DNA from: a phage
Strand: one strand, 5' to 3'
Length of the DNA: 1,209 nt
Sequence record: OR846194.1
Positions 652 to 1,209 of the stretch are shown here, piece by piece (position 1 is the stretch's first letter; each line of letters starts with the position of its first letter). Below the pieces are notes generated by a model. That model saw only the letters and a program-made list of their open reading frames with translations, was not told the origin of the DNA and searched no databases. The translations under genes and the position numbers were made by a program.

Positions 652-872
652 TCCGGAATATTTTCAAACGATTTACCAATCAGACTTTCCGTTGTCCTCT
701 CCCCGGTCAGTGGTACACCACGCCAGCAGGGCATGTTCTACGTGTTAGCCTGGTTGACCGTGAATGTCAGAAGGTGATTTGTGAACCGCTGGGCCGTAAT
801 TACCGCGTCAGTATGCCGCTTATAGCCTTTCGCTCCGGAAAAAACATGAAGCATCTCGGAGGTGCTGCATGA
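648..872 (+). CDS. Small hypothetical phage protein (74 aa), function unknown; translationally coupled to rha
   Basis: ATG 648-650 overlaps the rha stop TGA 649-651 (ATGA). Strong Shine-Dalgarno AAGGGGG at 636-642 with a 5-nt spacer. The ORF ends at TGA 870-872, which overlaps the start of the next gene. Protein MIRNIFKRFTNQTFRCPLPGQWYTTPAGHVLRVSLVDRECQKVICEPLGRNYRVSMPLIAFRSGKNMKHLGGAA has 3 Cys and 2 His; I recognise no confident family. Confidence 0.65.
   Translation: MIRNIFKRFTNQTFRCPLPGQWYTTPAGHVLRVSLVDRECQKVICEPLGRNYRVSMPLIAFRSGKNMKHLGGAA
858..862 (+). promoter_or_regulatory. Shine-Dalgarno (GGAGG) for the replication-protein gene starting at 869
   Basis: GGAGG sits 6 nt upstream of ATG 869, inside the 3' end of the small ORF. 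Confidence 0.65.
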
Positions 873-1209
873 GTATGGAGCTGATGGTTAAAGCGATGAA
901 AATTCGAGTGGGAAATCCATTGCGAAAACTGGTTCTGATTAAGCTGGCTGATAATGCCAGCGATCAGGGCGAGTGCTGGCCCAGCTATCAGCATATCGCT
1001 GATCAGTGCGAGATTAGCAAACGTTCTGTGATGAATCATATTGCGGCCCTCTGTGAGTCCGGGCTGGTAAAAAAAGTCACCCGGAAAGGTGAAAAAGGTA
1101 ACTCAAGTAATATCTATCTCCTTCATCTTGATGGTGCAGGAGATTCACTAGGGGGTAGTGCAAATAATTCACTATCTGGTGCAGCAAATTCACCAGGTAG
1201 TGCAGGAGT
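869..1209 (+). CDS. Replication-initiator-like protein with an N-terminal winged-helix/HTH DNA-binding domain (phage O-like replisome organiser); 3'-truncated by the window end
   Basis: ATG 869-871 overlaps the upstream stop TGA 870-872. Canonical SD GGAGG at 858-862 with a 6-nt spacer. Open frame runs to the window end. Translation MSMELMVKAMKIRVGNPLRKLVLIKLADNASDQGECWPSYQHIADQCEISKRSVMNHIAALCESGLVKKVTRKGEKGNSSNIYLLHLDGAGDSLGGSANNSLSGAANSPGSAG matches the pattern I recall for HTH_36-type N-terminal domains of phage/plasmid replication proteins (LxKLADxA...GxCxPSxxxIAxxCxxSxRSVxxxIxxLxExGLV...NxY), followed by a Gly/Ser/Ala/Asn-rich linker. From memory, not a search. Confidence 0.7.
   Translation, partial: MSMELMVKAMKIRVGNPLRKLVLIKLADNASDQGECWPSYQHIADQCEISKRSVMNHIAALCESGLVKKVTRKGEKGNSSNIYLLHLDGAGDSLGGSANNSLSGAANSPGSAG
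1133..1209 (+). repeat. Imperfect tandem direct repeats (units about 18-24 bp, consensus roughly GGT(AGT)GCARSA(AAT)RATTCACYA) inside the replication gene; iteron-like; truncated by the window end
   Basis: Unit starts at 1133 (GGTGCAGGAGATTCACTAGGG), 1154 (GGTAGTGCAAATAATTCACTATCT), 1178 (GGTGCAGCAAATTCACCA) and 1196 (GGTAGTGCAGGAGT...). The core RATTCACYA recurs at 1142-1150, 1166-1174 and 1187-1195. Unit lengths differ by multiples of 3, so the reading frame is preserved. Confidence 0.5.

Follow-up and report, generated by a model that had tools for sequence, protein, structure and literature searches.

The subject here is a run of imperfect direct repeats inside a phage replication-initiator gene, carried by a 1,209-nucleotide stretch of phage record OR846194.1 (the window, meaning the whole stretch analysed at that length). 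The repeats begin at position 1133, immediately after the codons for the winged-helix N-terminal domain (N-domain) of the initiator, and run past the window edge at 1209. Most probably they are the iterons of a replication origin embedded in the gene of its own initiator and putatively bound by N-domain dimers, as judged by analogy with phage lambda. Because the array lies in frame within codons for a disordered linker, one stretch of DNA would serve both as origin core and as linker-coding sequence. Such an arrangement would very probably constitute a lambda- or P22-like embedded origin in an initiator family outside that of lambda O and P22 gp18.

The window derives from a lambdoid prophage of Escherichia coli O157:H7, being 100% identical to chromosomes of that serotype (e.g. 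NZ_CP169544.1 573092-574300). Iterons 1 (1133..1153, GGTGCAGGAGATTCACTAGGG), 2 (1154..1177, GGTAGTGCAAATAATTCACTATCT) and 3 (1178..1195, GGTGCAGCAAATTCACCA) are complete within it and iteron 4 (1196..1209, GGTAGTGCAGGAGT) is cut by its edge, with unit starts 21, 24 and 18 nt apart. The continuation was read from L001, 13.2 kb around the window in a 100%-identical E. coli record whose coordinates equal the window position plus 6000, and positions beyond the edge are given here as window equivalents. Every unit contains a dyad of the form GTGCA-N5-TKCAC, with cores at 1134-1148 (GTGCAGGAGATTCAC), 1158-1172 (GTGCAAATAATTCAC) and 1179-1193 (GTGCAGCAAATTCAC), and at window-equivalent 1200-1214 (iteron 4) and 1224-1238 (iteron 5, entirely beyond the window). 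The core-to-core spacing is thus 24, 21, 21 and 24 bp. The dyad arms are complementary at four of five positions in four units and at all five in unit 4, the core of which (GTGCAGGAGTTGCAC) is a perfect 5+5 dyad. In total the five-unit array spans 111 bp, from window position 1133, at codon 89, to window-equivalent 1243. Tandem Repeats Finder makes a modest call (period 21, 2.5 copies, 67% matches, score 55), and the dyad core is the better description of the repeat. Exact matches to the dyad pattern in the 13.2-kb prophage stretch are confined to the array, and a search of the same 13 kb for further motif copies, such as an autoregulatory site, returned only one-mismatch matches at chance level. 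The initial annotation, made from the window alone, had described three full units and a truncated fourth, spaced 21-24 bp apart and directly following a helix-turn-helix domain, and all of this stands. Its expectation that downstream sequence would hold further units and then an AT-rich stretch was borne out in the first part, with two more units making five in all; the AT-rich tract is weak in this prophage.

The gene that holds the array encodes a phage replication initiator of the HTH_36 type (PHROG 270 and relatives). The gene lies on the plus strand, its 5' 341 nt (113 codons) occupying 869..1209 with the ATG at 869, and in full comprises 272 codons (L001:6869-7687), ending at window-equivalent 1687. 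The 272-aa protein matches PHROG 270, 'replication initiation protein', over residues 3-271 (E 1.4e-88), separate PHROG families match its N-half only or its C-half only, and 5406 homologues were found at E up to 1e-5. Pfam HTH_36 matches residues 17-67 (E 3.5e-12; 46.4 bits against a cut-off of 25), and DnaD_N falls just below threshold on residues 21-85 (26.9 bits against 27). Together with an AlphaFold2 (AF2) model built from 45 homologues, these matches place the winged-helix domain, the presumed reader of the iterons, at residues 1-88, encoded on the plus strand by 869..1132. The model gives this domain four helices and a two-strand wing whose strands end at residue 85, at a predicted local distance difference test score (pLDDT) of 80-93. 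Confidence falls below pLDDT 50 over residues 91-157, and a helical C-terminal domain (C-domain) follows at residues 160-225 with pLDDT about 60-80. The array-encoded peptide, residues 89-125, therefore falls in the predicted disordered linker; its portion within the window, GAGDSLGGSANNSLSGAANSPGSAG, is rich in Gly, Ser, Ala and Asn as first reported, and the dual role then suggested for this DNA, as repeat and as linker-coding sequence, agrees with the model.

Structural searches with Foldseek matched the N-domain only, and only to winged-helix proteins of a generic kind, among them 2v79, the N-domain of DnaD, and dimeric regulators of the MarR/PadR type. For the C-domain no Pfam or NCBIfam family was found, nor any PDB relative by sequence or profile. 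The initiator has no match to PF04492 (Phage_rep_O) at E up to 1, its best match being HTH_36, and BLASTP against P22 gp18, itself a PF04492 member (E 6.9e-38), gives E 4.4, which is no detectable similarity. Membership of the lambda O / P22 gp18 family is ruled out on these two results, and without such homology the mapped P22 origin cannot be transferred to this gene by descent. The last approximately 25 residues (DPYFKASYDNVDYSQIPAGFRG, L001 7612-7684) are shared with the initiator of phage vB_EcoM-689R6 (L217), which has another N-domain and another C-domain, the latter looking like the lambda O C-terminus, and whose gene is followed by yfdN and no loader gene; this tail may be a separate interaction module.

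That the DNA repeat is a by-product of a repeated peptide, the region being a low-complexity Gly/Ser/Ala/Asn linker and nothing more, was the alternative raised by the initial annotation. It has some appeal, for repetition is evident in the peptide too (G-[S]-A-G/N-D/N-S-L/P) and its region is predicted to be disordered, but several lines of evidence contradict it. When the 37-residue peptide was synonymously recoded in 20,000 samples with the prophage's own codon usage, the null means were 0.04 motif matches and 4.8 repeated 6-mers, against 5 and 31 in the array, and 0/20,000 samples reached either figure; the array uses GCA for 7/7 of its Ala codons. Since a recent duplication could also beat this null, comparison with the Aeromonas phage AsXd-1 and natural polymorphism weigh more. 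AsXd-1 has an N-domain with 83% protein identity to that of the E. coli initiator, and at conserved residues the two genes use the same codon in 24/26 cases (92%) within the array, compared with 34/63 (54%) in the N-domain and 29/65 (45%) in the C-domain. In units 4 and 5 of AsXd-1 the TGCAC and TTCAC arms are exchanged, converting V-A to D-S and the reverse, with the motif kept: here the amino acids change while the DNA motif stays.

Polymorphism points the same way. Among 23 distinct natural type-A arrays, 8/50 positions in the dyad arms are variable (mean alternative count 0.5), compared with 13/25 in the central 5 nt (2.4) and 19/33 between units (3.2), and the arms differ from all other positions at a Mann-Whitney p of 5e-6. 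Within the arms it is the third codon positions that vary least of all, whereas selection on the protein would have produced the reverse. In two types of related initiator, moreover, the repeat period is not a multiple of three (spacings of 23, 22 and 24 bp in the RothD type and 23, 22 and 23 in the mEp554 type); the same DNA unit is consequently translated in different frames, which excludes a peptide-driven repeat for the family. The array is thus under selection at the DNA level and the repeat exceeds what the peptide requires, which is the point that the initial annotation had proposed to check, and an explanation by linker composition alone is scarcely credible.

A related proposal, that the array is a neutral minisatellite generated by slippage in a tolerant disordered linker and without any DNA-level function, is likewise very improbable. 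It would account for the common in-frame variants of 1 to 9 units, and a recent duplication alone would outperform the synonymous-recoding null. It does not sit well, however, with arms that are kept between E. coli and Aeromonas phages when flanking silent sites are about half diverged, with polymorphism that avoids those arms, or with dyad symmetry in every unit, which slippage leaves unexplained; nor does it predict that unrelated repeats should occupy the same site in every N-domain type.

This last observation comes from a survey of relatives, in which the N-domain was used as a protein query against phage genomes. It yielded 19 further full-length initiator genes from phages of Escherichia, Klebsiella, Aeromonas, Vibrio, Aggregatibacter, Morganella, Psychrobacter, Pseudomonas, Yersinia, Labrenzia and Arthrobacter, and the same architecture is also listed for relatives from Salmonella phages; mEp515, in which the winged-helix domain is a short separate open reading frame (ORF), was left out of the count. 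All of these genes have three to seven direct repeats, internally dyad-symmetric, directly after the winged-helix domain, and the repeat sequence is specific to the type: GGGGCAGGAGCTGCCC three times in phi24B, GGTATGCCAGCAGATAGCACA four times in Aggregatibacter S1249, GGTAGTGTCAGAGAGACACCGGG four times in mEp554, TAGTGAYNNNNTGTCACC three times in Vibrio D290, CCCGCAGAATCTGCG three times in Vibrio pA2SJ1, and repeats of the CGTCAAAATCTGAC type in 689R6 and YeP1. Scanning IMG/VR contributed another 120 loci, among which 90 arrays are distinct. When the N-domains are clustered at about 78% identity, 14 clusters result, every one with a dyad repeat of its own, and the sequence of the region around helix 51-64 differs along with them. 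Homologues thus keep nucleotide repeats at the same site with a sequence that changes together with the N-domain, which was the comparison that the initial annotation had proposed.

Across the 90 unique loci, arrays are never dissimilar where two N-domains are at least 95% identical (minimum 8-mer Jaccard 0.28), and are never shared where N-domain identity falls below 70% (maximum 0.18, those few being related motifs). N-domain identity and array similarity are correlated (rho 0.52; Mantel 0/2000), which is weak evidence by itself as linkage would give the same; it is more telling that discordant pairs are wholly absent although recombinants at the 3' junction are many. Such recombinants, in which an N-domain and its array are joined to a different C-domain, are frequent, with at least six C-domain classes following the same junction. 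In P0067 and P0072, for example, a phi24B-type or RothD-type N-domain with its own repeats is fused to the C-domain type of the window. Because concordance persists amid this exchange, N-domain and repeats act together as a single module of specificity, as they do in lambda, 434, P22 and phage L. The same pattern bears on whether the sites might belong to some other protein, be it a Rha-family or PerC-family regulator, a repressor or a host factor. Genes for a Rha-family and a PerC-family regulator do flank the initiator gene, yet repeat type tracks the initiator N-domain across phages with quite different neighbours, and no motif copy lies in a promoter region; another reader of these sites is accordingly most improbable.

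Copy number varies within this scheme. In-frame variants (P0001-P0042, alignment A1) encode proteins of 242, 250, 272, 286, 294 and 302 aa with 1, 2, 5, 7, 8 and 9 units respectively and no other difference, and the two-unit form occurs on 64 contigs.

How an embedded array of this kind might start replication can be sketched by analogy with lambda O at ori-lambda (PMC7466680) and with winged-helix dimers, from which binding, melting, helicase recruitment and origin firing are all extrapolated. Initiator made from the early-right operon would fill the five sites with N-domain dimers to form an 'O-some'-like nucleoprotein complex; the complex would distort and melt a flanking segment of low stability, perhaps the 40 bp that precede the array or a set of phased GAACC repeats 3' of it; and the C-terminal domain would then bring in the host replicative helicase. 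The first candidate melting region, 1093..1132, adjoins the array on its 5' side and is the least stable 40-bp segment in 3 kb, with a nearest-neighbour free energy (dG) of -45.1 against a mean of -55.8 (standard deviation 3.2), although it also encodes the wing (KGNSSNIYLLHLD) and its composition may therefore be a by-product of the protein. In the average of 53 diverse loci, an array that is itself stable stands between two low-stability peaks, one at the same relative position as 1093-1132 and a stronger one on the 3' side (z 1.1-1.4 at 0 to +30), and obvious A/T runs follow the array in several homologues, including S1249, Morganella and D65. A 10-nt inverted repeat (1116-1125 / 1135-1144, ATCTCCTTCA / TGCAGGAGAT, 90% complementary) ties the 5' low-stability segment to the centre of iteron 1, and could be a melting site or simply chance.

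It is worth setting out what weighs against an embedded origin. Firstly, O-only lambdoid phages, whose replication module is a single O-like gene, are unstudied and their replication is not understood according to a 2025 survey (PMC12315714). Secondly, no helicase or helicase-loader gene was found in the 13.2 kb of this prophage, leaving the step after binding without a known route; a P-like or helicase gene is present in some homologues (phi24B, RothD, S1249, phi2). Thirdly, there is no marked AT-rich tract 3' of the array, where GC content is at least 0.43 and the 40-bp dG is -51 against the mean of -55.8. Fourthly, the range from one or two up to nine units implies that copy number is only loosely constrained, and some array copies may sit in dead prophages. 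Finally, two of the supporting statistics flatter the case: the excess of dyads in the window (3 observed against 0.01 expected from shuffles) is a generous figure, as the pattern was defined after the data had been seen, and linkage alone would in part make the adjacent DNA co-vary with the N-domain.

Some of these points would suit sites that are bound by the initiator without being the origin, acting instead in autoregulation, as a transcriptional roadblock or in copy control by handcuffing, with the origin elsewhere. The array does lie within the early-right transcription unit, its copy number varies, a strong 3' AT-rich tract is lacking in this prophage, and the iterons of plasmids also act in copy control. 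Such a role is nevertheless unlikely, because the 13 kb around the gene contain no second cluster of the motif, lambda and P22 offer parallels in which intragenic iterons are the origin, and low-stability segments flank the array in the family average.

A second conserved element lies directly 3' of the last iteron, at window-equivalent 1241-1290 (L001 7241-7290), where GAACC repeats occur in phase (aGAACCAGTCActcttttGAAGCAGTCAaaGAACCAGTCAatGAACCAata). The element consists of two to four copies of GAACC(A)GTCA, with the GAACC core phased every 11-12 bp (Itty13, Labrenzia), and its range extends from enterobacterial phages to those of Pseudomonas, Labrenzia and Arthrobacter. It is present with every iteron type and ahead of every C-domain type, of which there are at least six, is read in up to three frames, and is the point of module exchange. 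Fifteen homologues were sampled without reference to it: 12/15 have at least two copies of GAWYC(N0-2)TCM right after the array, one more has two copies elsewhere in the gene, and the density of the pattern after the array is 27.6 per kb against a background of 0.26 per kb. The copies in this prophage are read in different frames (R-T-S-H as opposed to E-P-V-N), and the Arthrobacter phages Abidatro and Jamun have four GAACCGTCC copies with a period of 11, 11 and 13 in frames 1, 0, 2 and 0. Among seven diverse homologues, identical residues share the same codon in 175/183 pairs (96%) within the element compared with 404/1083 (37%) in the N-domain, and amino-acid difference rates are similar (27% and 32% respectively). 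With silent sites kept at comparable amino-acid divergence, the GAACC region is either an element maintained as DNA or a stretch that recombination has homogenised, rather than a conserved peptide motif. No description of the element was found in the literature, and in full-text searches the iteron and GAACCAGTCA strings match only unrelated primers.

Part of the element is duplicated in P0018. In phi24B (L083), a Morganella phage (L090) and L115 an extra GAACCAGTCA copy lies 5' of the array, in the wing-coding segment (L-N-Q-S-N), and in phi24B-type and Morganella-type genes the GAACCAGTCA element accordingly brackets the iterons. P22 has one GAATCAGTCA right after the last gene-18 repeat, followed by an A-rich tract in which ACAAAAGACAAT is repeated (L213 2841-2985); this may be chance or a shared origin feature.

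What the GAACC element does is a matter of conjecture: it might serve in unwinding or helicase entry, or be a joint for recombination. One tentative possibility, which we regard as doubtful at present, is that the family origin is bipartite: 1) variable iterons would set replicon specificity; and 2) the constant GAACC part would act as a specificity-independent unwinding or helicase-entry element. In a bipartite origin the GAACC part might be recognised as single-stranded DNA, either by the initiator through its conserved part or by some conserved protein of the host. Equally, the element could be a crossover point at which phages swap origin modules. If the bipartite arrangement were true, it would explain how replication starts in O-only lambdoid phages that have no loader of their own.

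The surroundings of the gene are those of a lambdoid early region. Complete E. coli genomes matching the window number 1172/5426; phage cdtI is 98.6% identical to it, and the stretch recurs at 88-98% identity in mEp460, SfV, ST64B, Stx2a and Stx2c phages and others. A Rha-family gene (Pfam Phage_pRha, E 1.5e-30) ends at 651 and is followed by a 74-codon ORF at 648-872 (PHROG 1153, function unknown). ATGA stop/start overlaps at 648-651 and 869-872 join these two to the initiator gene, which suggests translational coupling of all three. The initiator gene stands downstream of a repressor/cro (cI/cro) pair, the usual position of gene O in lambdoid phages, and to its 3' side lie genes for a PerC-family regulator (yfdN-like), a Dam methylase, a LexA-like protein and RusA (L001 6869-9540). 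No sigma-70-like promoter was found in or near the array. Viable or inducible phages with this initiator module include cdtI, mEp460, SfV and ST64B, which shows the module at work in nature. In some assemblies, whole phage genomes with the module are reported as circular replicons of 34-45 kb: CP077666.1, NZ_CP019281.1 and NZ_CP148393.1 (L220) were deposited as circular 'plasmids' of that size with the same replication region, and in the 12 kb of NZ_CP148393.1 that were read, lambdoid early genes accompany the same O-only module.

Distantly related ori-binding proteins with their own iterons inside their own genes are already an accepted view (PMC8022706), which makes the array another case of a known arrangement. 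Iterons inside an initiator gene are therefore no surprise to a specialist; it is the proposed O-only origin and the frame-independent GAACC element that are worth following up. The array would supply a candidate origin for a very common replication module, which occurs in phages with genes for Shiga toxin, for cytolethal distending toxin or for serotype conversion. Since iteron type varies together with the recognition helix, the types provide a natural table of specificities for a winged-helix family, from which replicon incompatibility between co-resident prophages could be predicted; the constant GAACC element, for its part, may offer a way into the helicase-loading step.

Amongst known systems, the nearest by gene content is the O-only module (phage LLS type), found in 34/314 lambdoid phages of Enterobacterales (PMC12315714). 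The replication module of this prophage matches that class in being a single O-like gene without helicase or loader; another shared feature is the presence of yfdP/Q/R in the early-left operon, which ST64B shows too, and ST64B, mEp460, SfV and cdtI carry the same initiator. The survey that defined the class does not describe iterons or an origin for it (PMC12315714; 'iteron' has 0 occurrences), and no description of the iterons of ST64B, SfV, cdtI, mEp460 or phi24B was found in the literature.

The closest parallel in arrangement is lambda, whose origin consists of four 19-bp iterons and an AT-rich region inside gene O (PMC7466680). The Shiga toxin (Stx) phages 933W and P27 have six-iteron origins, in which the two extra iterons add 13 aa to the protein (PMC7466680), and in lambda, Stx phages, P22 and phage L alike the iterons lie inside O or gene 18 (PMC7466680, PMC8022706). 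As in lambda and the Stx phages, the iterons described here stand mid-gene at the boundary of N-domain and C-domain, are imperfect inverted repeats and lie about two helical turns apart, and extra units add in-frame linker residues, here across a range of 1-9 units where those phages have four or six. Unlike lambda, the N-domain is HTH_36 and not Phage_rep_O, the iteron sequence is unrelated, and this prophage has neither a pronounced 3' AT-rich tract nor a P-type partner gene. Gene 18 of phage L contains six 11-bp repeats, a likely origin on sequence grounds (PMC8022706), and the P22 origin is annotated within gene 18 (rep_origin, NC_002371 32840-32984). The likeness to both is that of initiator-specific repeats inside the initiator's own coding region, and the P22 GAATCAGTCA resembles the GAACC element. 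P22 differs from this prophage in that gp18 is a Phage_rep_O protein, accompanied by a DnaB-type helicase (gp12) and a clear A-rich tract after the repeats.

Further afield, SPP1 G38P / oriL and its relatives in phages of Gram-positive bacteria have a replisome-organiser gene with an internal origin and a DnaD-N-like fold. The initiator studied here shares with them a winged-helix N-domain resembling DnaD-N that would bind repeats inside its own gene; the repeat architecture is different, those phages have partner helicase and loader genes, and sequence relatedness is visible only at the sub-threshold DnaD_N level. Iteron plasmids (RepA, pi, TrfA) likewise offer direct repeats, bound by winged-helix proteins beside a DNA-unwinding element and setting replicon specificity, a pattern to which the present array would conform with its putative binding. 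Plasmid iterons, however, are not part of the rep gene, and a Rep with two winged helices binds them as a monomer, whereas the sites in this initiator gene are translated and dyad-symmetric, a symmetry that suggests recognition by dimers.

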